Shown here: in pieces, positions 1 to 13,115 of the stretch
Layout: each line of letters begins with the position of its first letter
Numbering within the stretch: position 1 is the stretch's first letter
Source of the DNA: a virus
Length of the DNA: 13,115 nt
UHGV virus genome: UHGV-0040766
Reading direction: 5' to 3' (one strand)
Program-made: the position numbers and the translations under genes
The notes under the pieces: model-generated
Database searches by the model: none
The model's input: only the letters and a program-made list of their open reading frames with translations
Told to the model about the DNA's origin: nothing

Positions 1-94
1 GCAGCTCACGGTAACTGATGCCGTATTTGCAGTACCAGCGTACGGCCCACAGAATGATGTCACGCTGAAAATGCCGGCCTTTGAATGGGTTCAT
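1..94 (-). CDS. tnpA: IS6-family transposase (Tnp26-like), N-terminal 31 codons only; remainder lies outside window
   Basis: minus-strand ATG at 92-94; translation MNPFKGRHFQRDIILWAVRWYCKYGISYREL recognised as IS26 transposase N-terminus. Confidence 0.85.
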   Translation of the reverse strand, partial: MNPFKGRHFQRDIILWAVRWYCKYGISYREL

Positions 95-157
95 GTGCAG
101 CTCCATCAGTAAAAGGGGATGATAAGTTTATCACCACCGACTATTTGCAACAGTGCC
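1..157 (-). mobile_element. IS26-like (IS6 family) insertion sequence, terminal 157 bp; element continues beyond window start
   Basis: 14-bp terminal inverted repeat GGCACTGTTGCAAA present as reverse complement at 144-157; subterminal sequence and transposase N-terminus match my recollection of IS26 (one or two mismatches). Confidence 0.85.
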
Positions 158-206
158 CTTTTCTCTCCTGGCCTTCAGCAAGACCCAGCACCAATGAAGT
201 ATTCAT
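158..206 (-). pseudogene. 5' remnant of a small gene truncated by the IS26 end
   Basis: ATG at 204-206 preceded by GGAG; reads MNTSLVLGLAEGQERK and runs directly into the IS26 inverted repeat; upstream region 218-290 is about 85 percent identical to the module upstream of gene 367-696. Confidence 0.45.
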
Positions 207-217
207 CACCACTCCGT

Positions 218-230
218 AAACAAATTGTTT
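218..230. promoter_or_regulatory. palindrome AAACA-AAT-TGTTT, copy 1, candidate operator or 5'UTR element
   Basis: perfect 5+3+5 palindrome 12 bp upstream of the truncated gene start codon. Confidence 0.45.
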
Positions 231-366
231 TCTCAATGGCGTAAATAATACCAGTGTAAAAACGGCTACAAAGCATATTGCTCAGGCACATGAATTATCT
301 AAAGGTGGTTCTTCCCTGCGGCTACAGAGAAGTTAAGCCAGCAGGCGGTGCTGGCTTTGGTTGGGC

Positions 367-696
367 TTACGCGAATAACTCAAGGAATTCCTGCACGTCC
401 CAATGCTGGACAAGGTGAAGATAGAGCTTAGAAATCACGTCATTCTCGCTATCGCATGTGAAGTAGTACTTCTGGCTGCGGTTGTATGTGTCCACACAAA
501 ATTCGCTCATATCCATAAAGTCAGCATCTTCACCCATGTCGCAAATAATCAAAGCAGGAGCATCATCACGAGTCATCAGCTCAAGCACCCAGCGCGAATT
601 GATCAGCGTGGAAGACCAACCTTCTAACTCATAAAACTGGTCAAACTCTTTTTGAGTCATTTTCTTGATTTGGTTGATGTCGATATTTGCAAACAT
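367..696 (-). CDS. hypothetical small acidic protein (109 aa)
   Basis: ORF track 367..762 trimmed to ATG at 694-696 (MFANIDINQIKK...), which has AAGGA 9 nt upstream; earlier track start is TTG/GTG without RBS; no family recognised. Confidence 0.6.
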   Translation of the reverse strand: MFANIDINQIKKMTQKEFDQFYELEGWSSTLINSRWVLELMTRDDAPALIICDMGEDADFMDMSEFCVDTYNRSQKYYFTCDSENDVISKLYLHLVQHWDVQEFLELFA

Positions 697-708
697 AAAG
701 CAATCCTT

Positions 709-721
709 AAACATGTTGTTT
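709..721. promoter_or_regulatory. palindrome AAACA-TGT-TGTTT, copy 2
   Basis: lies 12 bp upstream of ATG of gene 367-696, between a -10-like TATTGT and the RBS. Confidence 0.45.
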
Positions 722-835
722 TCTGAATTTCGTAAACAATACCAGTAAGAAAACGGCCACAAAGTATATCGTTACGGTGCTGCGCTGCCCCGGAGGTTAA
801 TAGCGACAAAAGCCACCGTGCTGGTGGTCTCACTC

Positions 836-1054
836 TTAATCTTCGTCGTCCGGGAACTCGCTGTGTACCGCGTCCACCAGCTCCCGCTTTTCATCTTCAC
901 TAAGCAGGTGCCAGATATCCTTCCCTTTGGGCGATTCCCCTTCTACCGGGACGAACGACCACAACTTGCGGTACAACTCCGGCCCCACTGCATCCAGACA
1001 CTCAGCCAGGGAATCCACACCCCACACCTCAACCGTCACAGGCATCTTAATCAT
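836..1054 (-). CDS. hypothetical small acidic protein (72 aa)
   Basis: ATG at 1052-1054 with GAGGATGAAGAG upstream; ends in acidic tail PDDED; no family recognised. Confidence 0.6.
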   Translation of the reverse strand: MIKMPVTVEVWGVDSLAECLDAVGPELYRKLWSFVPVEGESPKGKDIWHLLSEDEKRELVDAVHSEFPDDED

Positions 1055-1086
1055 CTCTTCATCCTCACTTCGTTTATATAACGTCT

Positions 1087-1099
1087 AAACATGTTGTTT
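1087..1099. promoter_or_regulatory. palindrome AAACA-TGT-TGTTT, copy 3
   Basis: 34 bp upstream of ATG of gene 836-1054; followed by a segment (1100-1135) homologous to 3868-3900. Confidence 0.45.
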
Positions 1100-1436
1100 A
1101 CTTATTGGTGTTATTGTCGCAATAAGACAAAGGCGAAAAAGGATTTTATGTCGTGAAAGCCAGGCTGGGCAGTGAATATCCGGGAACGACACGGGAACCA
1201 GTATTTACGATATTCTGCTCTACGCGCGCCGCAGGGCTGGTGGGCAGAATTTTCTTCTCCCCGAAAACCTACTGAAATCGCTTGAGACCCGAGGATGGTC
1301 TGGCAGAATGGAGTTCAGCAGCTGCACGAGAGGGAACGACACTCCCTCGCGATTTTCAGGCGAGCGAAGAGCAAGGCGCACTCCCGAAGATTTCCCGCAC
1401 TGCTCCCGCAGTCGTCCCTCGCTCTGTACCGGGATG

Positions 1437-1575
1437 TACCCGTTTCCCGACCGGCAGCCAGCCTTTTCCCGGTTCGTATAGCGGGATTCCCACCGTTTCC
1501 CTGAAAAACCTCCAGCCTTTTCCCTGCGGCGACGTTCCCGTTCCTGAAAAGGGACATGGCTTTTCCCTGGATGGC
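1437..1575. repeat. direct repeats built on TTTCCC(G/T)G motifs (about 6 copies, roughly 55-bp super-unit) in a GC-rich non-coding tract
   Basis: CCGTTTCCC and CAGCCTTTTCCC each occur twice, alternating, plus related GTTCCCGTTCC and GGCTTTTCCCTGG; only low-complexity overlapping ORFs. Confidence 0.5.
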
Positions 1576-1764
1576 TCGAAGGCTGACCGAAGGGGTGGAT
1601 AGGGACGTTACGGGGGATGAAAACTATGGCTTGAATTTATACGAAGAAAGTGGCGATACCCCTCCTTCCCTTCCCACTTATACCTCCCACGAATTTTCTC
1701 TCTTATGTGGGCATAAACCTTCTCTCTGATAACGCTCAATACGGCGACTATTCCTGTGGGTGAA

Positions 1765-1885
1765 ATGGGTGGTTTGTTCTTTCTACCGGCATATGTGGTT
1801 TCGTTCTTCTTGAGGTGGTTCTTCTCTGTGTTTTCGTCAGGGTTGTTCTCGTTGTTTTGGTGATTGTTCTTCTCTGTGTATGGAG
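1765..1885 (+). repeat. degenerate tandem repeats of about 19-26 bp (GGTT(T/C)GTTCTTCT-like) at the start of a G+T-rich, A-poor tract (about 1740-2450)
   Basis: five successive units starting near 1768, 1795, 1815, 1840, 1860; a sampled 60-nt stretch (1801-1860) has 2 A residues on the plus strand. Confidence 0.45.
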
Positions 1886-2642
1886 TAATGGCAGGTGGGC
1901 GATTCCTTTCGTTATTGTATTTGAGTTGTTTGTCTTGAGAGCGTGAAAGGCTTTTGTGGTTATTTGTGTATTGAGTAATGGCGTTTCCCCGCGAATGTTC
2001 TGTTTCGTGTCTTTGGGGATTGAGGGAGTCCTTGCGGTAACAGGCTTCGTTAGAGTTTCAGTGGTTCTGGTGTTTATTCGCTGTTTGGGGAATGGCGTGT
2101 AGTGGGTATCGCATGTATGAATGTTTCGAGTTGCCTGTGAAAGTTAGGTTGGTTGTCCGGTAGCCTGGGAAGAAGAGGTGGGTCTTTTCAGTAGCCTGCC
2201 ATAAAGAGGTTGGTTGTTTTTGGGAATGTGGGTAATGGCGTCTCTGGGTTTCCTGTGGGTGTGGTTAGCTTGTTTTCTTGTGTCTGAAAACAACTTGTTT
2301 AGATGTCCAATATAACGCAACGGGAGCGCTTCTGAGCGTGTCTGTTTTTGGGTGGTATCACGAGTCGTTTTTGACGTTTTGGTCGCAGGGAGATGGATTC
2401 TGGTACGCTGGATTTGGGTATAAGAGATGGCGTGCGAAAACATCAACTTTTTAGACCAAATCAGGGGAAAGCGTTGACTTTACGTTGATGTGTTATTTAT
2501 TTGTTTTCTTATGGGTGTAATTGGCTTAAATGCCTTGTCACGCCTGGGATTGAGTGGGGTAGGGTGGTGGGGAAAGTGGCGATCAACGGACTCTTATAGA
2601 AATCCTCAATTTGTGACCGCCAATATCAACGAGCTGCAGCCG

Positions 2643-3212
2643 TTAGTTGTTCAGATAGGCATCCGGAACGCGCACATAAAAGTTTCTTTCGCCGGTCAGT
2701 TCCAGAGTAACGTTTATGTCGTTGCCGTTATCCAGCGTAGCCGTCGCTTTATAGAACTTGTCCGTCACCTTGTCCTGAATTGTCACCTTCATACATTTCG
2801 GCGCTGTGGTTCCGTTATTCTCTTTCAGAATGGTCGTTACGAGAGGACAAGCCGCTTCTTCAAGAGCAACCTCTTCCTGGTGTGGGATACCGATGAAGAT
2901 GTTACCAGCAAGCAACGCGACGATTACGATAAAAGGAAGTCGACTGCCTTTTGTAACGGTGGCACGTTTCCAGAGATAGACCGGAAGGAGAAATACTCCC
3001 CACAGGATGGCCGGTGGTTCATACCCTGCATCAGACAATGCCATTCTGTCAGCCACCAGAAAGCCGAGTCCAGCGACTCCACCTATCACTATTGCATAAT
3101 TCAAATACTCATCTGGCGGTGCTCCAAAGAAGAGAGGCAGTAAAGCTAGAAGCCACGCATAAGCATTATTCAGAGGTTTTGTTTGTTGGTTCTGGGTTTC
3201 CATCACATCCAT
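2643..3212 (-). CDS. hypothetical integral membrane protein (about 4 TM segments plus about 80-aa C-terminal soluble domain)
   Basis: ORF track 2643..3212; four hydrophobic stretches (AWLLALLPLFF, YAIVIGGVAGLGFLVA, AILWGVFLLPVYLW, LPFIVIVALLAGNIFIG); overlapping plus-strand ORF 2490..3143 judged spurious. Confidence 0.65.
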   Translation of the reverse strand: MDVMETQNQQTKPLNNAYAWLLALLPLFFGAPPDEYLNYAIVIGGVAGLGFLVADRMALSDAGYEPPAILWGVFLLPVYLWKRATVTKGSRLPFIVIVALLAGNIFIGIPHQEEVALEEAACPLVTTILKENNGTTAPKCMKVTIQDKVTDKFYKATATLDNGNDINVTLELTGERNFYVRVPDAYLNN

Positions 3213-3288
3213 TCCATCAGATTAAAAAGCGGTACTATGTTACCAATTTTCTTCGCTTATATGACATGATTACTCAACGAGTGGGCGA

Positions 3289-3609
3289 TCACCATTCCCA
3301 TGCAGGTAGCCCATCCACCAGCTCGGCGTCGCAATCGAAGTGAACCACGTCAAAGCCGTCATCCAGTATGGTCTGTATGTTGGAGATCGCCTCTTGGGAA
3401 ATGCCGTACTCACGCAGTTCTTCCTTCCAGTCATTCCCTCGCATTCCAGCACGAACAATCCAGCCGTACTGTGTACCGTGTACCCAATTCAACCCGCGAT
3501 CAGTAAGTGGGTCGAAGCAGGCAATGGGTAGCCGTTCTGAATCCGCTGCCGTTACGTGGGCGGTGCTGATCACCGCCGTCTTATACGATTCGGTGATTTT
3601 CAGCATCAT
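3289..3609 (-). CDS. hypothetical protein (106 aa)
   Basis: ORF track; start overlaps stop of upstream gene by 4 nt (ATGA), suggesting translational coupling. Confidence 0.6.
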   Translation of the reverse strand: MMLKITESYKTAVISTAHVTAADSERLPIACFDPLTDRGLNWVHGTQYGWIVRAGMRGNDWKEELREYGISQEAISNIQTILDDGFDVVHFDCDAELVDGLPAWEW

Positions 3610-3839
3610 GCCTTCTCCTTTGGAAACAGAATGTTGGCCGTGTCAGAAATGACATCCCAATTCACGCCGACGCTGGTGTCATGGCACTCTTTGATTTTTC
3701 GCAAAACCTGAACGCACTGTTCGTCAGTCAGGTCTGGTCGCACTTCACCTACATCTTCCTTGTGCCACATCACCATCAGCAGCGGCTCGTCTTCTGGGTA
3801 GTTCTCCAGCTTTTCGATGATGTCTTTTGCGGTTCCGAA
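3606..3839 (-). CDS. hypothetical small acidic protein (77 aa)
   Basis: ORF track 3606..3860 trimmed to ATG at 3837-3839 (MFGTAKDIIEKL...), which has AAGGAG 5 nt upstream; track start is TTG. Confidence 0.6.
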   Translation of the reverse strand, partial: FGTAKDIIEKLENYPEDEPLLMVMWHKEDVGEVRPDLTDEQCVQVLRKIKECHDTSVGVNWDVISDTANILFPKEKA

Positions 3840-3854
3840 CATGATCAACTCCTT

Positions 3855-3867
3855 AAACAATTTATTT
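3855..3867. promoter_or_regulatory. palindrome AAACA-ATT-TATTT, copy 4 (one mismatch)
   Basis: overlaps the region immediately 5' of the RBS of gene 3606-3839. Confidence 0.4.
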
Positions 3868-3905
3868 TCTTATTTGTGTTATTATCTCAAATAACAAAAG
3901 GTAGA

Positions 3906-3918
3906 AAACAAAATGTTT
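3906..3918. promoter_or_regulatory. palindrome AAACA-AAA-TGTTT, copy 5
   Basis: perfect palindrome between genes 3606-3839 and 3928-4194. Confidence 0.4.
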
Positions 3919-3927
3919 AAGGGATGA

Positions 3928-4194
3928 CTAGGTGAGTTTGAAGTCGTCTATGTCATCAACAAACTCCATATACCTGGCTTCGACACTCGACAATCTGATC
4001 AGATACGCAAGCCCGTAACTTAGTGAAGTGGGTTGCTCCAGCACAAATTCGAACCCATCCTCATGCGTTTTACCAAGCCAGAACCCCCCACCGTATTCTT
4101 TTTCACGTTGGAAGAAAACGAACTGTCCGGGTATTAGGTGCTTGAGTGCTTCGCCCCTATAGACGATCACATATTTAGAATTCTTGCTGCCCAT
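3928..4194 (-). CDS. hypothetical protein (88 aa)
   Basis: ORF track 3928..4251 trimmed to ATG at 4192-4194 (MGSKNSKYVIVYRGE...) with GAGG 8 nt upstream. Confidence 0.5.
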   Translation of the reverse strand: MGSKNSKYVIVYRGEALKHLIPGQFVFFQREKEYGGGFWLGKTHEDGFEFVLEQPTSLSYGLAYLIRLSSVEARYMEFVDDIDDFKLT

Positions 4195-4283
4195 TGCTCG
4201 CCTCGCAATACTGTACATATAAACAGTATTATTTATTACGGTACTGGTCAACTTTACGGGTTAATTGAATAACAAGATGGTGA

Positions 4284-4296
4284 AAACAATTTGTTT
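4284..4296. promoter_or_regulatory. palindrome AAACA-ATT-TGTTT, copy 6, in divergent intergenic region
   Basis: lies between divergently oriented genes 3928-4194 (-) and 4382-4585 (+). Confidence 0.45.
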
Positions 4297-4381
4297 TGGC
4301 ACTTGAGATTTTGCAAATCGCACCTACATGGAAAACGGCAATTTTTGAAACCTGATTTGACCCATGTGAAAGGAGGAAACG

Positions 4382-4585
4382 ATGAAGACCTATGATCGCA
4401 ACCGTAACGCTATCACTACCGGCAGCCGAGTGATGGTGGCAACGAATGGTGCAACGGGAGTCATCAAGGAAATCTGCGGAGAAGGCAAATCAGAAGAACA
4501 ATTACGCCGCTCTGACTGCGTGTCTATCGAAGGTGTGGAAGGTCTATTCTGCCCAATGGATTTGGTTCGCCTGGGGTTCCATTAA
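4382..4585 (+). CDS. hypothetical protein (67 aa)
   Basis: ATG at 4382 with strong RBS GAAAGGAGGAAACG immediately upstream; no family recognised. Confidence 0.65.
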   Translation: MKTYDRNRNAITTGSRVMVATNGATGVIKEICGEGKSEEQLRRSDCVSIEGVEGLFCPMDLVRLGFH

Positions 4586-4599
4586 TTTCACCATCTATA

Positions 4600-4612
4600 A
4601 AACAAATTGTTT
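4600..4612. promoter_or_regulatory. palindrome AAACA-AAT-TGTTT, copy 7, adjacent to terminator hairpin
   Basis: perfect palindrome, here at the 3' ends of two convergent genes; supplies the U-tract for the minus-strand transcript. Confidence 0.4.
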
Positions 4613-4633
4613 AAGGCCACAACTAGTGGCCTT
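4613..4633. terminator. hairpin between convergent genes (stem AAGGCCAC/GTGGCCTT, loop AACTA), likely terminator mainly for the minus-strand gene
   Basis: 8-bp perfect stem; on the minus-strand transcript it is followed by AAACAAUUUGUUUU. Confidence 0.45.
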
Positions 4634-4640
4634 ATCTGGC

Positions 4641-5339
4641 TTACGGAACAGCGGTAATCAGATCGCAAATGCCTGTTTTAGTTAAATCACTATTCAGCTT
4701 CTGAAAATTGGCATTCAGCATTGCGGTATGTATTCGATTCTCAAGTTCAAAGAAGAGACCGATCTTGCCCTCTTTGGCTGCCACCTTCTTCCAAATATTC
4801 ACCTGGTCATCTGCGATACGACTTGCGCAGGTGAACAAGAACGAACTCCCTCTGGGAAGGGATGTCGTGCTGTAGTATTCACCGTCAACTTCAATATACT
4901 TAGCTCGGAATGACTCCAGAGTTAGCTTTTTACCGCTCTCAGCCTGCTTTGTGTCTGCCTTGCTTGTCTTTTCCTGAACTTCAGGCTGTTTCTGCACAGG
5001 CTTTGGTGTCTCATTGACCACCGCAGTGCTGGCCGAACCATCCAAACTCTTGAGGCCATTAATTTGGATTAGATAAGCCAACTCCAGAGCCTTATCACCA
5101 GTGAGTTTTCCACGCATACTTACCCATTGACGCTGAACCGTCTTTAAGGCGTCTGCGTCCCCCGGGTTTGCTTTGAGTGCGTTGGAATAGGTAGAGCTAA
5201 GTTGTTCGTCTAATTTTGACAGGCGTTCGTTATCGCAGATTTTGTGTTCGATTTCTGCCGAAGCCTTTTGGCAGTCAAAGCTGGCTGCAAATACAGCCGG
5301 CGATGCCACCAACAATGATGCCAGTAGGATATTTTTCAT
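4641..5339 (-). CDS. periplasmic DUF1311 / lysozyme-inhibitor LprI-like protein with signal peptide (232 aa)
   Basis: ATG at 5337-5339 with GGAG 6 nt upstream; N-terminal MKNILLASLLVASPAVFA signal peptide; FDCQKASAEIEHKICDNERLSKLDEQLSSTY...QRQW pattern typical of DUF1311. Confidence 0.65.
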   Translation of the reverse strand: MKNILLASLLVASPAVFAASFDCQKASAEIEHKICDNERLSKLDEQLSSTYSNALKANPGDADALKTVQRQWVSMRGKLTGDKALELAYLIQINGLKSLDGSASTAVVNETPKPVQKQPEVQEKTSKADTKQAESGKKLTLESFRAKYIEVDGEYYSTTSLPRGSSFLFTCASRIADDQVNIWKKVAAKEGKIGLFFELENRIHTAMLNANFQKLNSDLTKTGICDLITAVP

Positions 5340-5377
5340 ATTCACTCCATAAATATAAAAGCGCCTGACTATAGCAC

Positions 5378-5593
5378 TTAACCAATTGCTTCTCTCATCT
5401 GATTGTGAAGCTCTTTCAGCCCATCACGTACCGCGTTCATGATACGTTCCAGGGATTGGTATCTGGGGTTTGGCACTGTTGGCCAACCGGCATACCACGG
5501 ATCGTCACCAAACAGACTCAGCAGTTCGTTACCGACACCGAAACAGCAGCAACTTTCTTTTACGTCATCAGCGTTTTCTGCCTCGTCCCACAT
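5378..5593 (-). CDS. hypothetical protein (71 aa)
   Basis: ORF track only; weak RBS; position between two minus-strand genes is compatible with an operon. Confidence 0.35.
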   Translation of the reverse strand: MWDEAENADDVKESCCCFGVGNELLSLFGDDPWYAGWPTVPNPRYQSLERIMNAVRDGLKELHNQMREAIG

Positions 5594-5827
5594 ATTGCGG
5601 GCCTGCTCTGCGTCGATTTCTCTCTCTCCCTGCGCAACTTTATGATTTCGGATTTGACGAAAAGCAGGTTTGCGTCGTTGTCATCGTCGACCGTACTGAA
5701 GTGGCACACTGAATTTGGCCGTCTGTAATGGGCAGATCCGGCAACTGTTTAAAAACATCCATCTGCTCATGGATACGCAGAAACCACCTTGCCAGCTCCA
5801 TCTGCTCACCGCGGGTGAGGAGATTAT

Positions 5828-6559
5828 TCAGCGGGGACTTAACAAAAGCGGAGACTCGCTCGACAAGCCGGCCAGTGAACCAACATCCCCCCAATTCTGG
5901 TGTGTCAGCGCCCCGATACTTACCACTCCAGGCAGCACTTCTTTGTGGTTGTGGTAGTGCCCGGACAACAATAAACGGAAGCCGATATCTTTCAGTTCCT
6001 GTGCGTCGATGCCGACATCGGGCATGGTGGGGATCGCTTTGTTGATTGAGGTATGTACAACAACATCATGGTTGTCACCATCCAGCCCGGAACGCAGCGT
6101 TTTGAGATCGCTGATAAGTTCTGCGTAGTTATTACGCCAGCTAATCAGATGGACGGTTACGTCGCCCATTTTGATGGAATGAGGACGTTTGCCGCAGACG
6201 ATTTCCACACCGATTGAGCGCAGAGAGGCTGCTGCATTGGCGCTGTATACGGAATCGTTGGTTTCGAGGTCGTGGTTGCCAGCCAGCATTACCACCTTGA
6301 GACCCAACTCTTTGATGATCCACTCGTAAGTTTCGGTCACGAAATGCAGAACGGAAGGTGATATAGCACCGCGAACATGGAAGGTATCACCAGCTACCAG
6401 CATGTTCTTACAGCCAGCAGCTTTCATCGCTTTGGCCGCCTCCTTCGTAGCGTCCAGTTGGATCTCCAGCCGAGAGTTAAGCCCGTCAGCGTTTGTTGTC
6501 GCAAAAGCATCCCAACGATGATAATGGGGATCTGATATTACCCCGTATGGCAATGTCAT
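5828..6559 (-). CDS. calcineurin-like metallophosphoesterase (243 aa)
   Basis: motifs SDPHYH, AGDTFH, GNHD and SGHYHNH in the canonical order; ATG at 6557-6559 with AAGGA 9 nt upstream. Confidence 0.75.
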   Translation of the reverse strand: MTLPYGVISDPHYHRWDAFATTNADGLNSRLEIQLDATKEAAKAMKAAGCKNMLVAGDTFHVRGAISPSVLHFVTETYEWIIKELGLKVVMLAGNHDLETNDSVYSANAAASLRSIGVEIVCGKRPHSIKMGDVTVHLISWRNNYAELISDLKTLRSGLDGDNHDVVVHTSINKAIPTMPDVGIDAQELKDIGFRLLLSGHYHNHKEVLPGVVSIGALTHQNWGDVGSLAGLSSESPLLLSPR

Positions 6560-6955
6560 GTGTCTTTTCCTTTGTGGTTATTTTGATACAAATTCTAAGC
6601 GTGCATAAGAGGCATACAACCCAGACAACACGGCACACAAAAGAATATAAAGGCACATGATAATAACAAAAAAATAAGTAAGTAAATACCTATCAGATAG
6701 GGCAGCAACGATTTCTAAACGTCACAAGCAATTTTATGAGAGCAGTCATTTACTGATGACAAGAAATGAAAAAGGAGAACGGACGGTGAAGTTGTGAGAT
6801 GACATTTACGGCGTTTGCGTGCGTCGTCTTCAAACGCATCCGTCGGCCACAGTTTCTGCTCTTGAATAAAATTCACTCATGCATTAATCCCTAAAGCTCT
6901 CAGTGTCTTTCTAAGACACCATATTTTATGCCCGGTAAAAAGCATGAGTTTGCCT

Positions 6956-7600
6956 TTAAAACGTCTCTGAGGGCTTCTGACGCGCTCTGCTAATGTCTAT
7001 TACCCCAGCTTTTGGACGAGGGTCTACAAGATTCAACTCTTCAGCACTGTGATACTCCGTGTCGAACTCCCGATCGACATGGCGAATGTAAATGGCTGTC
7101 AGAAGGCTGTTATCATTCAGAAAGTGTCCGTAAGATTTGCGAATTACTTCGCCAACCTTCTCAATCTTCTCTCCGCCCATGCAGAGATGGTTAAATCGGC
7201 TGTGTTTCCGCAGCATTTCATCCACCGGGCCTGAGTAGACCTTATCAACTCTCCCGAACCGGATGATATTTCCGGTATCAGCTTCAACCAGACAAACGAG
7301 TTTGCCAGGTTCGACACGATCTCGCCAAGTGACACCAGAGCGCAGTGTGTTGAAGTAGGGAGCATCCAATCCGATGATCGGTTTACGAAATGCTAGTAGT
7401 GGCACGTAACGTATGCAGCTGTTTAGGTGGAAATGCGCACCGGCGTCGTGGAGTTTAAGCCGGGTTTCGTTAATCGGGCATTTCGAAGCAATGCCGCAAA
7501 GGTCGCAGAGCAACTTCTGTTTGTTCAGACTAGTGTTTGATTCAATGGTGTAGGAGCCATCTTCAAGACGGCGAACCCAGCGCGTGCGTTTAAGATCCAT
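6956..7600 (-). CDS. hypothetical protein (214 aa) with an N-terminal Cys/His cluster
   Basis: ORF track; CDLCGIASKCPINE...HDAGAHFH...C cluster; no family recognised. Confidence 0.55.
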   Translation of the reverse strand: MDLKRTRWVRRLEDGSYTIESNTSLNKQKLLCDLCGIASKCPINETRLKLHDAGAHFHLNSCIRYVPLLAFRKPIIGLDAPYFNTLRSGVTWRDRVEPGKLVCLVEADTGNIIRFGRVDKVYSGPVDEMLRKHSRFNHLCMGGEKIEKVGEVIRKSYGHFLNDNSLLTAIYIRHVDREFDTEYHSAEELNLVDPRPKAGVIDISRARQKPSETF

Positions 7601-7676
7601 AATTCTTGTTCAAATAATTTTGTCCGGGGCAACGATAACGGATAAGGCGCACCGGAGTTTGCAAATGCCTGTTTAC

Positions 7677-7901
7677 TTATTCACTTTATTCACAGGCCCG
7701 ATCCAATATTTAGATCCCCAGAGAGATCCTACAGAAGATCAAAAGAGATCCCCGATCGTCTCCAGCGCTTGCGGTTACTGGCTTGAGAAGGGGTTACTAT
7801 CCACTATAGGGAGCAAAATAACCACTGTAGAGAGCATAATAACCGCTATGAAGAGCAAAACAACCTCTCTGGAGAGTAGTCGGTATCCACTGTAGTGAGT
7901 A
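7677..7901 (+). other. replication origin module 1 (P1 oriR / RepFIB type): two tandem DnaA boxes, six GATC sites, five iterons
   Basis: TTATTCACT at 7677-7685 and TTATTCACA at 7686-7694; GATC at 7700, 7713, 7725, 7737, 7747, 7754; five roughly 21-bp-spaced iterons 7797-7901 (e.g. ATAACCACTGTAGAGAGCA). Confidence 0.7.
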
Positions 7902-8060
7902 GGAGACAATGTTTTAACTGGATAACTCCGAGCCTGTTTTTCTGCGGCAGATGGCTGATATTCTTGGAAATATTGTAAATTTTGCGTTGCGGCGTGTTTA
8001 TTTCGATCACACATTATCCCCAGAAGGGGAGTGATGCCTGATTTTGTAATTATCTGATTT

Positions 8061-8305
8061 TTATACACAGGCCCGATCCAGTAATTCAGATCCCTGTTAG
8101 AACCAAAGAGAACCACAAAGACCCAAAGAGATCCCCGGCCCTTGCAAACCGTTGTGCCACATGGCTTTAGAGGTTATCGATATCCACTATAGTGAGAAGA
8201 ACAACCACTATAGAGAGTAAATCAACCACTATGGAGAGTAGAAAAACCGCTGTAGGCGGTAGGATAACCACTGTGATGGGTGCTACTATCCACTGTAATC
8301 AGTAA
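8061..8305 (+). other. replication origin/control module 2, immediately upstream of repA: one DnaA box, three GATC sites, six iterons
   Basis: TTATACACA at 8061-8069; GATC at 8075, 8089, 8130, with AGAACC/AGACCC variants where module 1 has AGATCC; six iterons 8180-8304. Confidence 0.7.
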
Positions 8306-8342
8306 AGGCACCCAAGCCGTCGAATAAAAAGAGACATTTGGA

Positions 8343-9398
8343 ATGAGCGTAAACGACAATAAAAACATTGCGATAAGCGAAGCATTTTCCGAAACAGACA
8401 AAAAGACCGGCGAAGTTGTTACGTTAGTTCCTAACACCAACAACACAGTTCAGCCTGTTGCTCTGATGCGTCTTGGTCTCTTCGTTCCGACGCTGAAATC
8501 GACATCCAGGGGTAGAAAGGGGCAAATGGTCTCTATGGACGCCTCCGCTGAACTCAAACAGCTGTCTCTGGCCAAAGCCGAAGGGTACGAGGATATAAGG
8601 ATTGCTGGTCTTCGTCTTGATATGGATAACGATTTCAAAACATGGGTGGGCATCATCCACGCGTTCGCCAAGCACAAGGTTGTTGGTGACACCGTCACGT
8701 TGCCGTTCGTCGAGTTCGTCAGACTTTGTGGCATACCAACAGCCAGATCGTCCGCGAAGTTACGTAAGCGCCTGGACAGCTCTCTAAGTCGTATCGCCAC
8801 AAACACCATCTCATTCCGCAGCAAAGGCTCTGAAGAGTATTACGTTACGCACCTTGTGCAGACGGCAAAGTACAGTACCAAGAATGACACGGTCGAACTG
8901 AAGGCCGATCCTAAGATTTTCGAACTTTACCAGTTCGACAAAAAGGTGCTTTTGCAACTTCGGGCCATCAACGAACTCTCCAGAAAGGAATCCGCGCAGG
9001 CGCTCTACACCTTCATTGAAAGTTTGCCACCAGACCCGGCGCCAATCTCATTGGCTCGCTTACGCGCCAGACTTAACTTAACCAGCCGCACCATTACCCA
9101 GAATGCGACAGTCAGGAAGGCGATGGAGCAGCTGCGAGAGATCGGCTATCTCGATTACACTGAAGTGAAACGCGGCAGCTCGGTCTACTTCGTCATCCAC
9201 TATAGACGGCCGAAGTTACGTTCGGCACTGCCGCCATCTATGGCTACGCCTGAAGAGCCAGAAGATATCTTGCCAGGTGATGATCCGGAGGACATTATCG
9301 ATGTTGCCCCTGAAGAAAAAGACGGGGAAATGGTCATGTTGAGCAAGGAAGAACTGGCGATTCTCGAAGAGCTGCGCAAGGCAAAGGCTCGCAAATAG
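8343..9398 (+). CDS. repA: iteron-binding replication initiator, RepFIB / P1 RepA family (351 aa)
   Basis: translation closely matches my recollection of F-plasmid RepFIB initiator (e.g. [69 protein letters not shown]); flanked by iteron arrays. Confidence 0.9.
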
Positions 9399-9400
9399 CC

Positions 9401-10003
9401 CAACCACTGTAGAGAGTAAAAAGGCTCACTATCTACTGTAGTGAGCCTTTTTGTTTATCGGAAATGCAATATCCACTGTAGTGAGTAAAAGAAACCGAAG
9501 AATAACCACTGTAGGCAGTGCGCACAAATCGCGAAGTAAATGTTAGTGGTTGCAAACATAGATAAAACAAGGGCTGAGAGGTTAGCGGTCACTGGGTATC
9601 TCTGTTAAGTCTACTCTCTACAGCGGTTATCGTCGCTCTCCTCATTGTTGACTATCCACTGTGAAGAGCAGAATTGGCTGACTTGACCTCTATCCACTGT
9701 AGTGAGTGGATATCCGTTTAAAACAGCGAAGATTTACTCTCCATAGTGGATATCCGCTGGAGGGGGCATTCCATCACTCTCTATAGTGGTTGTTTGTAGT
9801 CAGTGAACGCCTGTTTACTCACTACAGTGTATAGCGACCCCGATAATCACCAATTTACTCACTACAGTGGATAGTTGATATCGTGGCAGAGGGTTTGCTC
9901 ACTACAGTGGTTGGGGTGCATACCTGAAGGGTGTTCTACTCGCTACAGTGGTTATGAGCCGGATTCACACGCGGTGAGCTGGCTACTCACCGCAGTGGAT
10001 AGT
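9401..10003. repeat. downstream iteron array (incA-like copy-control locus): about 14 iterons, the first five or six forward, the rest inverted
   Basis: forward units at 9401, 9431, 9469, 9502, 9651, 9690; inverted units (TACTC(A/T)CTACAGTGG-like) at 9612, 9736, 9775, 9816, 9856, 9897, 9936, 9984. Confidence 0.8.
9419..9458 (+). terminator. rho-independent-type terminator of repA, built on an iteron-like sequence
   Basis: 10-bp perfect stem AAAGGCTCAC / GTGAGCCTTT (9420-9429, 9441-9450), followed by TTTTGTTT, beginning 21 nt after the repA stop. Confidence 0.55.
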
Positions 10004-10007
10004 GTTA

Positions 10008-10223
10008 TCAGTGGATTTTCTTCAGCAGACCCCAGAGTGTCCCGGCCTTCGTTGCGAGCTTACCTGTTTCCGGATCGTACATGTGCCATTCACGTCGCTG
10101 GTGGACAATATACCCATCTTCACGTTCCAGTCGTTCCAGTACGCCGGACTGCTTGAACCCTTTGGCACGCCAGTAGCCGCTTGTTTTTTCGATTTCCAGA
10201 CCTGTCAGTGTAACCGCCATCAA
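10008..10223 (-). CDS. hypothetical protein (71 aa), last gene of a three-gene cluster
   Basis: ORF track; start overlaps upstream reading frame by 4 nt (ATGA); stop is 4 nt from the last iteron. Confidence 0.55.
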   Translation of the reverse strand: MMAVTLTGLEIEKTSGYWRAKGFKQSGVLERLEREDGYIVHQRREWHMYDPETGKLATKAGTLWGLLKKIH

Positions 10224-10554
10224 CTAATCTCCTTGCAGTCATCGAAAAGGTAGCTGTCGTTCTTCGCGTGAACGCCGTATACATCACCCGATTTGTTGTA
10301 AACGAATCTATCTTTACCTACGCCAGATAGTTCGCCGTTACGTTTAGTGAGAAACGGGGAAGACAGGACGCGATCATCGCGTACCACATAAAACTGTTCG
10401 CCACGGTCCACAACCATCGCGCCGTAATTAGCTTTAACGACGTTGCGGATCAGGCCGTTTTTCGCTTCGACCACAAACATTTCGCACTCATAGACATGTG
10501 TGTCCGCAAAGACGGGGAGAGTGAGCAGCGCCAGTACCAGGCTGTTTTCTTCAT
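10220..10554 (-). pseudogene. secreted hypothetical protein with a 1-nt frameshift in the signal-peptide codons
   Basis: ATG at 10552-10554 reads MKKTAWYWRCSLSP and stops after 33 codons; adding one base in the A4 run (plus 10545-10548) gives MKKNSLVLALLTLPVFA-DTHVYECEMFVVEAKNG..., in frame with track ORF 10220..10480. Confidence 0.5.
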
Positions 10555-11045: not shown

Positions 11046-11225
11046 GTGCTTTCTCCTTGTTGGTAAGTACTTATCTATCTTAATGGGCGCTATAAGGCGC
11101 ACAATCATTGTGTTCAGGCTGGTGGAAAGAACTTCTCCAGCGTGTGGTTGATAGCCTTATCAATGTGCATCAGGTGCCAGACGACCATATCTTTGCTTCC
11201 AATGCCGCGAGTGTAGATGAAGTGG

Positions 11226-11534
<309 letters not shown>

Positions 11535-11539
11535 CTAAG

Positions 11540-11545
11540 AGTCAA
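11540..11545 (-). promoter_or_regulatory. -35 hexamer TTGACT at the right end of the IS110-family element (half of a circle-junction promoter)
   Basis: TTGACT lies 14 nt from the element end; joined to the left end this gives TTGACT, 17-bp spacer, AATAAT. Confidence 0.45.
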
Positions 11546-12618
11546 GCTGTTATCGGGATACTGTTGATCCGCCTGTTTTGATTGCGCAGTAACGTGTAAA
11601 CTTCGCGGGAGATATATCGCTTTAGACAGCGTATCGCTTCCATTTTTGTATGTCCTTCGGCTACACGCCTGGCGACATATTCCTTTGTTTTTGCGTCAGT
11701 TCGTAAGCGTCCGATGGCGATGATGTGAAGTGCACTATTTGCAGCACGATCTCCACCACGATTAAGTCGGTAACGGTTCGTTTTTCCAGAAGAAACGGGG
11801 ACCGGGCTGACACCACACAGTGCCGCAAATCCTGATTCTGATCTTAACCGTTGAGGATTGTCTCCGGCAGTGATCAGCAACTGTGAAGCGCTTTCGTATC
11901 CGATAGCATTACGTTTAATCAGCTCAGGTGCCAACTCGTCGACAATTGCCGCAATCATGACATCCAGATCAGCGATTTCGTCATGTAACTCGAGATAGCG
12001 TCGGGCAAGGGACTTTAATGAAATGCGATAAACGTTGGTTACATTGCGGTATTCACTGGCATCAGGTCTCCAGGAACCCAGGGTCCTGATGAGCTGCATG
12101 CGCGTCATATTTCTGAGCTGTTCACGTAATTCATCCGGGGCAGAGATAATATTTGAATGGATAATCTGGAGAGCGACTCTGCGGGCTGATATTGCTGTTT
12201 TTCGGCAAGTTTTTAATACCCGCAGGGACTCAATCATGCCATCACGCGTTTTGGGAGTAACTGTCCTGATGCCTGAGAATGCTGCATGAGCGGCACATTC
12301 AGCATCAATTGTGTCACTTTTACCCCGTTTGCGTCGCTCCATCCGGTCTGGAGCAGTCACCTCAAGAACCTCTAACCCGGCGTTCTGAAAATAACGAAGC
12401 AAACCGGAACCATAGGTACCTGTGCACTCAACACCAATTCGCTTTAATGTCCCAAACGAGGTCATCCATGCCAGCATCTGCCGGTAACCTTGTCGTGTTG
12501 TGGAGAAATACTGAGTCCCAAGGACTTTATTGTTCTGATCTACGACAGCGGCAACGTGCAAATCTTTATGTGTATCCACGCCACCCACAACGGCAGCTTT
12601 GGTAACTTTATCAACCAT
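11542..12618 (-). CDS. IS110-family DEDD transposase / recombinase (358 aa)
   Basis: N-terminal VGGVDTHKDLHV, ECTGTYGSG and TDTIDAECAAHAA motifs (DEDD/RuvC-like) plus C-terminal FAALCGVSPVPVSSGK segment; AGGAG 8 nt upstream of ATG at 12616-12618. Confidence 0.9.
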   Translation of the reverse strand: MVDKVTKAAVVGGVDTHKDLHVAAVVDQNNKVLGTQYFSTTRQGYRQMLAWMTSFGTLKRIGVECTGTYGSGLLRYFQNAGLEVLEVTAPDRMERRKRGKSDTIDAECAAHAAFSGIRTVTPKTRDGMIESLRVLKTCRKTAISARRVALQIIHSNIISAPDELREQLRNMTRMQLIRTLGSWRPDASEYRNVTNVYRISLKSLARRYLELHDEIADLDVMIAAIVDELAPELIKRNAIGYESASQLLITAGDNPQRLRSESGFAALCGVSPVPVSSGKTNRYRLNRGGDRAANSALHIIAIGRLRTDAKTKEYVARRVAEGHTKMEAIRCLKRYISREVYTLLRNQNRRINSIPITA

Positions 12619-12890
12619 GACAGAGCTCCTGTGAGGAAACAGAGTTGAATCTCCAGACAGATAACCCGGACAGGACAGTAACGAGACAAGCCGTCAGGCC
12701 CTTCTTGAGTCACGCGCATCGGTGAGGAGATGCCTCGCATGAAGGCGCTTCCGGCAACCGACGGGTCCAGGGCAGGACACAAAAGGTCGATCGCTGTGTG
12801 AGTCAGGATGCGGGAAGGTCTTCACTGCATCAGTAATCACACCAATCTGGTTAAACGGCAAACTAAGTGGTGGTAAAGACTGACATCGGC
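12619..12890 (-). ncRNA. candidate bridge RNA (guide ncRNA) encoded in the 5' non-coding arm of the IS110-family element; exact ends unknown
   Basis: arm contains CACAGCGATC (identical to reconstructed target across the crossover) and CTGCCCTG (reverse complement of right target flank) 13 nt apart; also AGAAGGGC matching the element's right end; no plausible ORF. Confidence 0.5.
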
Positions 12891-12896
12891 ATTATT
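12891..12896 (-). promoter_or_regulatory. -10 hexamer AATAAT at the left end of the IS110-family element (other half of the circle-junction promoter)
   Basis: element begins AGTAATAATGCC on the minus strand; in the integrated state no good -35 lies upstream. Confidence 0.45.
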
Positions 12897-12899
12897 ACT

Positions 12900-13097
12900 A
12901 TCGCTGTGGAACATCACCCCGCCGGGCTTACCACGGGTTTCCCATGCCATTTCCAGCGATTTCATGGTGAGCCTGCTGTCCGGCGAGAACGACATGGCCC
13001 AGCCCACTGGTTTTCTTGCGAACAGGTCGAGAACAACGGCGAGGTACGCCCAGCGCTTACCCGTCCAGAGTAGAGTAAGAGGCAGGGCGTAGTCGGA
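12900..13097 (-). pseudogene. IS3-family orfB, internal fragment proximal to the nested insertion, with an in-frame stop upstream
   Basis: minus-strand SDYALPLTLLWTGKRWAYLAVVLDLFARKPVGWAMSFSPDSRLTMKSLEMAWETRGKPGGVMFHSD; in-frame TAG at 13098-13100. Confidence 0.7.
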
Positions 13098-13115
13098 CTA
13101 TTTCCCTGCCTCTCC

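Follow-up and report, generated by a model that had tools for sequence, protein, structure and literature searches.

A cluster of small genes at positions 158-4585 of the UHGV virus genome UHGV-0040766 was analyzed in the context of the whole available stretch of 13,115 nt (referred to as "the window"). The cluster consists of seven genes, here named A to G, of one open reading frame (ORF) that is truncated at the left boundary, and of a non-coding block of about 1.5 kb, and it is interspersed with promoter modules that share a palindromic operator. Coordinates are listed in Table 1. A previous sequence-only reading had described this region as a candidate anti-defence or establishment island, made up of small acidic proteins behind repeated promoters. 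All named ORFs are present, and they are annotated as coding sequences in RefSeq relatives. That the small ORFs of 67-109 aa are real genes is corroborated by this annotation, by the conservation of gene B in five genera and by codon differences that are mostly synonymous in genes A and F. Every ORF of the cluster has a full-length match to a PHROG, and all of these PHROGs are of unknown function.

Table 1. Features of the window and FljA homologues of related elements (SD, Shine-Dalgarno sequence; IS, insertion sequence; pI, isoelectric point; operators are exact copies of the palindrome unless stated otherwise)
Feature	Position	Strand	Remarks
IS26 end	1-157		left boundary truncating the phage-plasmid block; relatives annotate an IS26-family transposase here
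Truncated ORF	158-196	-	first 13 codons (MNTSLVLG...) of a 103-aa ORF, cut by IS26
Cassette 1	218-253	-	operator 218-230, extended -10 TGgTATTAT 245-253, SD GGAG, ATG at 196
Gene A	367-696	-	109 aa, pI 4.19, net charge -13
Cassette 2, drives A	709-744	-	operator 709-721, extended -10 TGgTATTGT 736-744, SD AAGGA
Terminator-like hairpin after gene B	813-827	-	contains Chi on the opposite strand
Gene B	836-1054	-	72 aa, pI 4.33, net charge -11, acidic C-terminal tail PDDED
Cassette 3, drives B	1087-1121	-	operator 1087-1099, extended -10 TGcGACAAT 1113-1121
Conserved non-coding block, ~1.5 kb	1100-2640		no ORF conserved among five relatives
ORF-less cassette	2288-2300 (operator)		inside the non-coding block; no ORF downstream
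Gene C	2643-3212	-	189 aa, membrane protein, soluble C-terminal domain of ~70 aa
Gene D	3289-3609	-	106 aa, pI 4.44, net charge -10, DUF5983 C-terminal domain (YeeW-like)
Gene E	3606-3842	-	78 aa, pI 4.54, net charge -8, short DUF1380-like protein
Cassette 4, drives E-D-C	3855-3918	-	O1 3855-3867 (one mismatch), extended -10 TGaGATAAT 3881-3889, O2 3906-3918
Gene F	3928-4194	-	88 aa, pI 5.3
Operator between divergent F and ydfZ	4284-4296		promoter-like site for F at 4370-4341 (-)
Gene G (YdfZ)	4382-4585	+	67 aa, pI 6.6, own strong SD AAAGGAGG
Operator and hairpin	4600-4612, 4613-4633		hairpin ends the LprI-like gene 4641-5345(-)
LprI/DUF1311-family protein	4641-5345	-	signal peptide; just outside the cluster
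RepA, Rep3-type	8343-9398		Rep3_N match 2.4e-11; SSU5 annotates RepA within its matching part
Chi sites	820-827, 1236-1243, 10097-10104, 11118-11125	+
Chi sites	874-881, 3315-3322	-
FljA homologues, SSU5 and PhiR41_1	L003 7302-7820, L010 317-763
FljA homologue, Cyrano (CYRAN_114)	L006 36781-37302

The window is taken to be a remnant of an SSU5-like phage-plasmid, namely of its non-structural arm, because of 90% identity to SSU5, the PHROG matches and the same order of the block in SSU5. The identity to Salmonella phage SSU5 (89.9%) was found for query bases 5708-10441 on the replicon side. Within SSU5_101-112, the genes for an LprI-like protein (SSU5_101) and YdfZ (SSU5_102) are followed by F, E, D, a non-coding stretch and B, which is the order seen in the window. 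The phage-plasmid PhiR41_1 also has the block. E. coli plasmids match the 13.1-kb window exactly, although the DNA does not belong to a usual plasmid backbone. No virion, lysis or replisome genes are found in the window, so the element is incomplete. The 158-4585 region is probably a fragment of the non-structural (early/accessory) arm that was stranded by IS elements in a composite IncFIB plasmid.

The cluster contains a repeated promoter module. The 13-bp palindrome AAACA-N3-TGTTT occurs in seven exact copies, while 0.04 are expected, and none of 200 shuffles reaches seven. An eighth copy (O1 of cassette 4) has one mismatch, and all copies lie inside 218-4612. A consensus plan was derived from 39 oriented instances, taken from the window and five related loci: TGnGATAAT, 13-14 nt, AAACAAnnTGTTT, A(A/C)GGAG, 5-10 nt, ATG. 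The promoters of the module have an extended -10 element without a recognisable -35 element. A simple sigma-70 scan returned few promoters because promoters that lack a -35 element rely on the extended -10. Cassettes 1 and 2 have 81% identity over 69 nt. Assuming a transcription start about 7 nt downstream of the -10 element, the palindrome would cover about +8 to +20.

The sequence-only reading had assigned a separate ribosome-binding site and module copy to every small ORF. The module itself was confirmed by its copy number, but it does not precede every ORF: it is carried by five transcription units only, and the copy at 2288 drives no ORF. Genes E, D and C form an operon, in which the stop of E overlaps the start of D; no module is found before D or C, and C is last. 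That this operon ends in a membrane protein agrees with the previous description. As to the four transmembrane segments attributed to gene C, up to four hydrophobic segments can be recognised by eye, of which only two stand out strongly in a simple hydropathy scan.

Cassette 4 carries two operators, which are 51 bp apart, bracket the promoter and form an inverted repeat with 33-nt arms (3851-3922). According to the predicted start, O1 would be centred at about +14 and O2 at about -38, over the -35 region. Pairs of operators with this 51-bp spacing are also present in SSU5, in PhiR41_1, in the SSU5-like element Cyrano and in a distant element (L011). Such an arrangement, with a site on either side of the promoter, points to a protein that binds DNA. 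The operator that abuts the terminator hairpin of the LprI-like gene has the same layout in PhiR41_1 and SSU5.

The operator is not confined to the cluster. In the complete genome of PhiR41_1 (108 kb), 11 exact sites were found, nearly all of them 25-35 nt upstream of start codons. The genes tagged in this way are non-structural: a tciA-like gene, parA, the gene for the replicative helicase, small ORFs and the first gene before the terminase region. Sites with one mismatch precede genes for RNR-beta and a CobT-like protein. In relatives, a DUF4942 gene (annotated as methyltransferase in RefSeq) sits behind the same operator; it is located outside the window. The distant element L011 has 6 exact sites and 5 sites with one mismatch versus 0.81 expected. 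Among 62 IMG/VR loci from such elements, 60 have between 1 and 10 sites, versus none of nine unrelated control loci (eight chromosomal fliC loci and one IncF plasmid locus). One operator recurs at dispersed promoters far above chance, as is characteristic of a global regulon. No mention of four variants of the operator was found in a full-text search of one library of papers.

The best explanation for the cluster is that it consists of repressor-controlled early or accessory cassettes of a phage-plasmid, and we consider this explanation probable. Each unit would be an independent mini-transcription unit with an extended -10 sigma-70 promoter and the operator AAACAA-N-TTGTTT about 13 nt downstream, near +14. 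The strongest unit (E-D-C) has a further operator copy 51 bp upstream of the first, which would cover the -35 region. The transcript would begin with a short leader, equipped with a good Shine-Dalgarno sequence, and would encode a small protein, in many cases acidic and restricted to the lineage. Because the same operator is found at about a dozen promoters across the element, we infer a single element-encoded repressor, a DNA-binding protein that would keep these promoters off while the element is carried as a plasmid-prophage. In the absence of the repressor, the genes would fire together, either just after entry into a naive cell or upon induction. Identical but separate promoter-operator cassettes fit such a coordinated early or establishment expression. 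One candidate for the regulator is a protein of the FljA family, whose gene is located a few kb away; both the sign of the regulation and the identity of the regulator are deduced indirectly.

Expression data for Cyrano in E. coli LF82 are consistent with this explanation. In lysogens grown in LB, published RNA-seq gave 5-17 normalised counts for CYRAN_101 and CYRAN_103-108, a level on a par with that of the terminase genes (7-8) (PMC9928086, S1 Table). For other operator-tagged Cyrano genes, the counts were likewise low, with 7.8 (DUF4942), 7.0 (tciA-like) and 21 (helicase), and parA gave ~50 (PMC9928086, S1 Table). CYRAN_102 is expressed at about 6-fold above background (PMC9928086), and some Cyrano small genes rise in macrophages to log2 values of about 7-8 (PMC9928086, S1 Table). 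These counts fit genes that are kept off during carriage, although they are no proof of it.

Several points weigh against repressor-controlled cassettes as the explanation. The Cyrano data refer to syntenic neighbours and not to orthologs of A, B, E, D and F. The parA gene has the same site and yet is moderately expressed in the lysogen, so that the site does not equate to complete silencing. Both the position of the operator relative to the transcript and its repressive role are predicted from the sequence. In the plasmid at hand, the block is a remnant, and its regulation or usefulness may have been lost. Two candidate links to a repressor were not borne out. The CI-like repressor of Cyrano was considered as a binder of the palindrome, but this is unlikely, as the repeats in its own intergenic region differ (GGTAAG-N2-CTTACC). 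Autoregulation of the FljA-like gene via the palindrome was also considered, but no copy is found beside this gene. The repeats of the GGTAAG-N2-CTTACC type are located in the CI-like control region (L005 22575-22830, CYRAN_45/CYRAN_46) and look like a second, separate operator system in Cyrano.

The proteins encoded in the cluster were said to be strongly acidic in several cases and to match no recognisable family. The first statement stands for A, B, D and E (pI 4.19-4.54), while C, F and G are not strongly acidic. A pI below 4.6 is found in only 15% of 66 PhiR41_1 proteins versus four of the seven proteins of the cluster (p ~0.01, a binomial estimate). In intact relatives, the same block also holds very basic small proteins (pI 10.5 and 11.0). 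The second statement had to be revised, since G is YdfZ, D belongs to DUF5983 and RefSeq assigns the label DUF1380 to E. For G, matches to Pfam PF14001 (1.8e-30, 105.6 bits, cut-off 27) and NCBIfam TIGR03318 (5.3e-32, 110.1 bits, cut-off 49.7) were obtained. D matches Pfam PF19419 (DUF5983) over profile positions 2-90 of 90 (E 7.3e-22, 77.9 bits versus a cut-off of 27). In islands of E. coli, genes of the DUF5983 family are situated downstream of those for CbtA toxins. E does not match Pfam DUF1380 (PF07128) at E <= 1, but it can be aligned to the N-terminal half of a DUF1380 protein from pENT-4bd that is itself Pfam-positive (BLASTP, 29% identity over 75 aa, E 7e-8). It is probably related to DUF1380 only remotely and is better called DUF1380-like than a member of that family.

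A and B are lineage-restricted orphans. Gene A has a full-length match to PHROG 7645 (function unknown), just 10 hits among 1.84 billion representatives, and no match in Pfam or the Protein Data Bank (PDB). The one hit that was examined, a homolog with 32% identity, is encoded in the same gene block of another, distant element of ~108 kb (L011). A is considered an orphan family confined to SSU5-like phage-plasmids. Its AlphaFold2 (AF2) model is unusable (predicted local distance difference test (pLDDT) score 48), the family being too shallow. A phmmer match of A to multicystatin was not reproduced by the family profile and is considered spurious. B is found solely in SSU5-like elements, with 21 invariant columns across the five genera. 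Its model (pLDDT 86) is a small helical bundle, for which neither a relative among known folds nor a likeness to any solved anti-defence protein was found. C has a full-length match to PHROG 12486. No homolog of C was found in the fetched stretches of SSU5 and PhiR41_1, and C is therefore considered a variable cassette. The F family is spread in Enterobacterales phage-plasmids and some chromosomes, but without annotation; F has no Pfam match, and the family profile finds nothing among PDB sequences. An assignment of F as Tad2/DUF2829 (anti-Thoeris) was rejected, as it derives from the UniRef name of one distant homolog, and neither protein matches any Pfam at E <= 1.

Comparison with relatives shows that the gene content changes. 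Synonymous codon differences exceed non-synonymous ones in A and F (36 versus 23 for F compared to SSU5). Gene A was detected in PhiR41_1, but the stretch of SSU5 that was retrieved yielded no copy of it. SSU5 has D, E and F, and none of C, D, E and F was detected in the retrieved stretch of PhiR41_1. In the distant element L011, the E-D pair is located downstream of A, not upstream as in the window. The promoter-operator-gene units behave as shuffled cassettes, as would be expected for accessory, fast-evolving functions.

It is tempting to speculate that some of the small acidic proteins (A, B, D, E) serve in anti-restriction or anti-defence, e.g. as DNA mimics, with a burst of expression that would shield the incoming element. 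We regard this as possible, though doubtful. The four proteins are enriched in acidity over the element background, and they are small, as DNA mimics are; these properties are necessary but far from sufficient, and acidity alone is weak evidence. The layout is of the burst type and operator-controlled, and the rapid turnover of cassettes is typical of arms-race genes. D is YeeW-like, from a family of CP4-type islands, and the DUF4942 gene with its RefSeq assignment as a methyltransferase shares the operator in relatives. The best support comes from the likeness of E to DUF1380 proteins of an IncF leading region, which is guilt by association only. In the IncF plasmid pENT-4bd, DUF1380 proteins are encoded between an orphan N6/N4 methylase, an ArdB/KlcA-type antirestriction gene (PF03230, 1.4e-25) and a DUF932 gene, and tra genes adjoin. 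This leading region (L023 8752-14552) has three DUF1380-like genes, interleaved with the methylase, the ArdB/KlcA gene and the DUF932 gene, and can serve for comparison with gene E.

On the other hand, no ORF of the cluster matches an annotated anti-defence or defence family of Pfam, PHROG or NCBIfam, and PADLOC finds nothing. Membership in the Ocr, ArdA and ArdB/KlcA families was specifically considered. No antirestriction match was obtained in Pfam or PHROG, and apart from the spurious multicystatin match of A, neither A, D and E nor the profiles of A and F returned anything significant among PDB sequences. Similarly, no Pfam, PHROG or NCBIfam match to SSB, PsiB or methyltransferase genes was found in 158-4585. 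No likeness to a solved anti-defence protein was found for the model of B, which is confident, and the model of A cannot be used. A published DefenseFinder screen reported that SSU5-group elements have few anti-defence systems, only Rad, in a minority of them (bioRxiv 10.1101/2025.09.12.675607), which also counts against this function. By association, roles in host takeover or anti-defence are plausible for some of the small proteins, E and D above all.

A different view of the palindrome is that it acts mainly at the RNA level: an FljA-family protein would bind the leader 5' of the Shine-Dalgarno sequence and block translation, as Salmonella FljA is reported to do on fliC mRNA. A strong FljA homolog (PF03614, 1e-68 to 3e-81) is indeed encoded a few kb from the cluster in SSU5, PhiR41_1, Cyrano, a Klebsiella relative and 62 IMG/VR loci (for coordinates see Table 1). 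FljA-type repressors prevent the translation of fliC mRNA, as stated in a passage of PMC2652032 that cites Bonifield & Hughes 2003 and Yamamoto & Kutsukake 2006. In addition, the Salmonella fliC leader AACATCAAGTTGTAATTGATAAGGAAAAGATCATG has CAAGTTGT just 5' of its Shine-Dalgarno sequence, similar to the cassette variants AAAACAAGTTGTTTAAGGAG...ATG. However, this 8-nt match was found post hoc, with an estimated p of ~0.01. The RNA hairpin would be very weak, with five A-U-rich pairs and a 3-nt loop. The 51-bp site pairs bracket the promoter, with one site upstream of the transcribed region, which points to DNA binding, and operator copies also occur beside terminators without a downstream gene. 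In the distant element, which keeps the motif, the 12 kb that were examined showed no FljA-like gene. Control at the RNA level is thus considered unlikely.

It is still less likely, though conceivable, that the genes serve carriage rather than early infection, as lysogenic-conversion morons, toxin-antitoxin modules or exclusion modules. YdfZ and the secreted LprI-like protein resemble products of host-physiology genes, the E-D-C operon ends in a membrane protein, and DUF5983 is linked to CbtA/CbeA loci. The Cyrano block genes that rise in macrophages, and CYRAN_102 with its elevated expression, also speak for a role in carriage. Most of the syntenic small genes are, however, at the background of structural genes in lysogens, and no toxin or antitoxin family was detected in the window.

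That the block represents the leading region of a conjugative plasmid, which enters the recipient first, is hardly credible: DUF1380 (E-like) proteins do occur in a true leading region and the block is near a replicon, but the window contains neither oriT nor relaxase nor transfer genes, the DNA is syntenic with a tailed-phage genome, the nearness to RepA is partly due to internal deletions, and the promoters are short and of the double-strand type, unlike long Frpo-like hairpins (there is one inverted repeat, with 33-nt arms; Frpo sequences themselves were not compared). Relaxase, oriT and tra genes are also lacking in the intact relatives of ~108 kb. The sequence-only reading had offered "plasmid leading region" and "phage early region" side by side. 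The former has to be dropped for want of oriT and relaxase, while the latter fits the SSU5 synteny, the cassettes and the near-silence of the syntenic genes in lysogens.

The non-coding block is conserved, with 72-84% identity across 12 matching phage records (Escherichia, Salmonella, Klebsiella) and 84% identity to SSU5. It contains GCCATTACYC four times (1883-2239) and GGGAAAMGG four times (1440-1524), an inverted repeat GTCAACG...GTTGAC, and the operator-bearing promoter without a gene. The plus strand is strongly G/T-rich from 1750 to 2450. Many sub-elements of the block survive in the distant element, among them the repeat families and the ORF-less operator promoter. An overlooked gene was considered, but comparison of five relatives revealed no ORF with a common position and reading frame. 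An RNA that is known, or one of unusual stability, was considered as well, but there is no Rfam match at E <= 1, and folds are no more stable than those of shuffled sequences. A plus-strand hairpin that resembles a terminator (2326-2339) has no counterpart in PhiR41_1 or Cyrano. Our guess is that the block is a cis site acting at the DNA level, e.g. a lytic origin or a protein-binding array.

The phage-plasmid DNA is flanked by IS elements. On the left, the reverse complement of the IS26 terminal repeat GGCACTGTTGCAAA runs to base 157, and the matches of relatives start at 158. The ORF cut by IS26 has intact homologs of 103 aa in the related loci L001 (19738-20049) and L003 (11738-12049). The right end (11226-13115) is a pile-up of IS elements, with a fragment of an IS3-family integrase core (11226-11495), an intact IS110-family transposase gene (11542-12618) and further IS-like fragments.

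Between the cluster and the IS pile-up, the replicon side encodes, besides RepA, an ASCH-like and a shortened SbcD-like protein. Iterons with a period of ~21 bp and the core ATCCACTGTAGTGAG are found at 7796-8308 and 9399-10002; they flank repA in opposite orientations. Inside the left iteron array, a short repeat (AGAACCAAAG) occurs three times (8099-8131). The SbcD-like gene (5828-6559) codes for 243 aa, while the Cyrano homolog is annotated at 1086 bp, which implies an internal deletion relative to intact relatives. A 71-aa ORF (5378-5593) matches only the C-terminal end of a PHROG with 287 positions. The region 5378-6559 probably marks a deletion joint, where intact relatives would have further phage genes. 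The location of the cluster next to a replicon, which had been used to interpret it, is thus real in the window but partly an artefact of deletions.

Two other observations concern the flanking and intervening DNA. The stretch with the LprI-like gene has 83% identity in the unrelated 47-kb Escherichia phage ev099. Exact Chi sites (GCTGGTGG) occur six times in 13 kb, versus 0.32 expected from shuffles; this is roughly twice the average density in the E. coli chromosome. PhiR41_1, Cyrano and the Klebsiella relative all retain the site at 1236. Chi sites may protect linear or rolling-circle DNA from RecBCD.

To our knowledge, almost nothing is known about the regulation and establishment of SSU5-type phage-plasmids. 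An operator that is common to the promoters of partition, replication and small genes provides a direct handle on the underlying circuit, and the operator-tagged small genes form a short list of candidates for screens of host takeover and anti-defence. Should one of these proteins turn out to inhibit a defence system, a new family of inhibitors would have been found. Clinical E. coli, Shigella, Salmonella Typhi and Klebsiella commonly carry SSU5-type phage-plasmids (bioRxiv 10.1101/2025.09.12.675607). It can be speculated that all aspects apply jointly: a yet undescribed SSU5-type global regulon (AAACAA-N-TTGTTT), possibly run by FljA, would direct an establishment burst, at least one orphan acidic protein (A, B or E-D) would be a new defence inhibitor, and the non-coding block, with a promoter of the same type, would be a new cis element, e.g. 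a lytic origin. This combination is improbable as a whole.

Several known systems resemble the cluster. The C1 regulon of P1 also belongs to a phage-plasmid, has a short operator at many dispersed promoters of non-structural genes, and is quiet in the plasmid-prophage state. The P1 operator is, however, asymmetric (ATTGCTCTAATAAATTT), while a 13-bp palindrome is found here, with a predicted role in repression. The KorB/KorA system of IncP-1 plasmids and the ArdK system of IncN/IncW plasmids are similar in that a 13-bp palindrome occurs about a dozen times at promoters of partition, replication and establishment genes. In both cases, a transient burst would be expected upon entry into a new cell. 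The KorB operator is different (TTTAGCSGCTAAA), and the element described here is a phage, not a conjugative plasmid. Phage early regions (lambda ea/b, the small ORFs of T-even phages) also contain small, fast-evolving, dispensable-looking ORFs, and the block ends a long co-directional run of genes for DNA metabolism and Ea22/Eaa/Eae-like proteins. Unlike those regions, each ORF here tends to have its own operator-promoter instead of being part of one long early operon, and a non-coding element of 1.5 kb is enclosed.

The anti-defence islands of leading regions (Samuel et al. 2024, PMC11541004) share co-oriented arrays of small genes with their own promoters, and one family (DUF1380-like) is shared with a real leading region. 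They differ in that oriT, Frpo promoters, SSB, PsiB, ArdA and Acr genes are not found here, and that DNA enters as a duplex by phage injection. Finally, the FljA-fliC system is comparable with respect to the FljA-family gene nearby and a target-like element with the CAAGTTGT core 5' of the Shine-Dalgarno sequence. It has one target, while there are many here, and the site pairs that bracket promoters suggest DNA binding. The kind of system is thus known from P1 C1, IncP KorB and phage early accessory regions, whereas the operator, the regulon and the orphan proteins appear to be undescribed.

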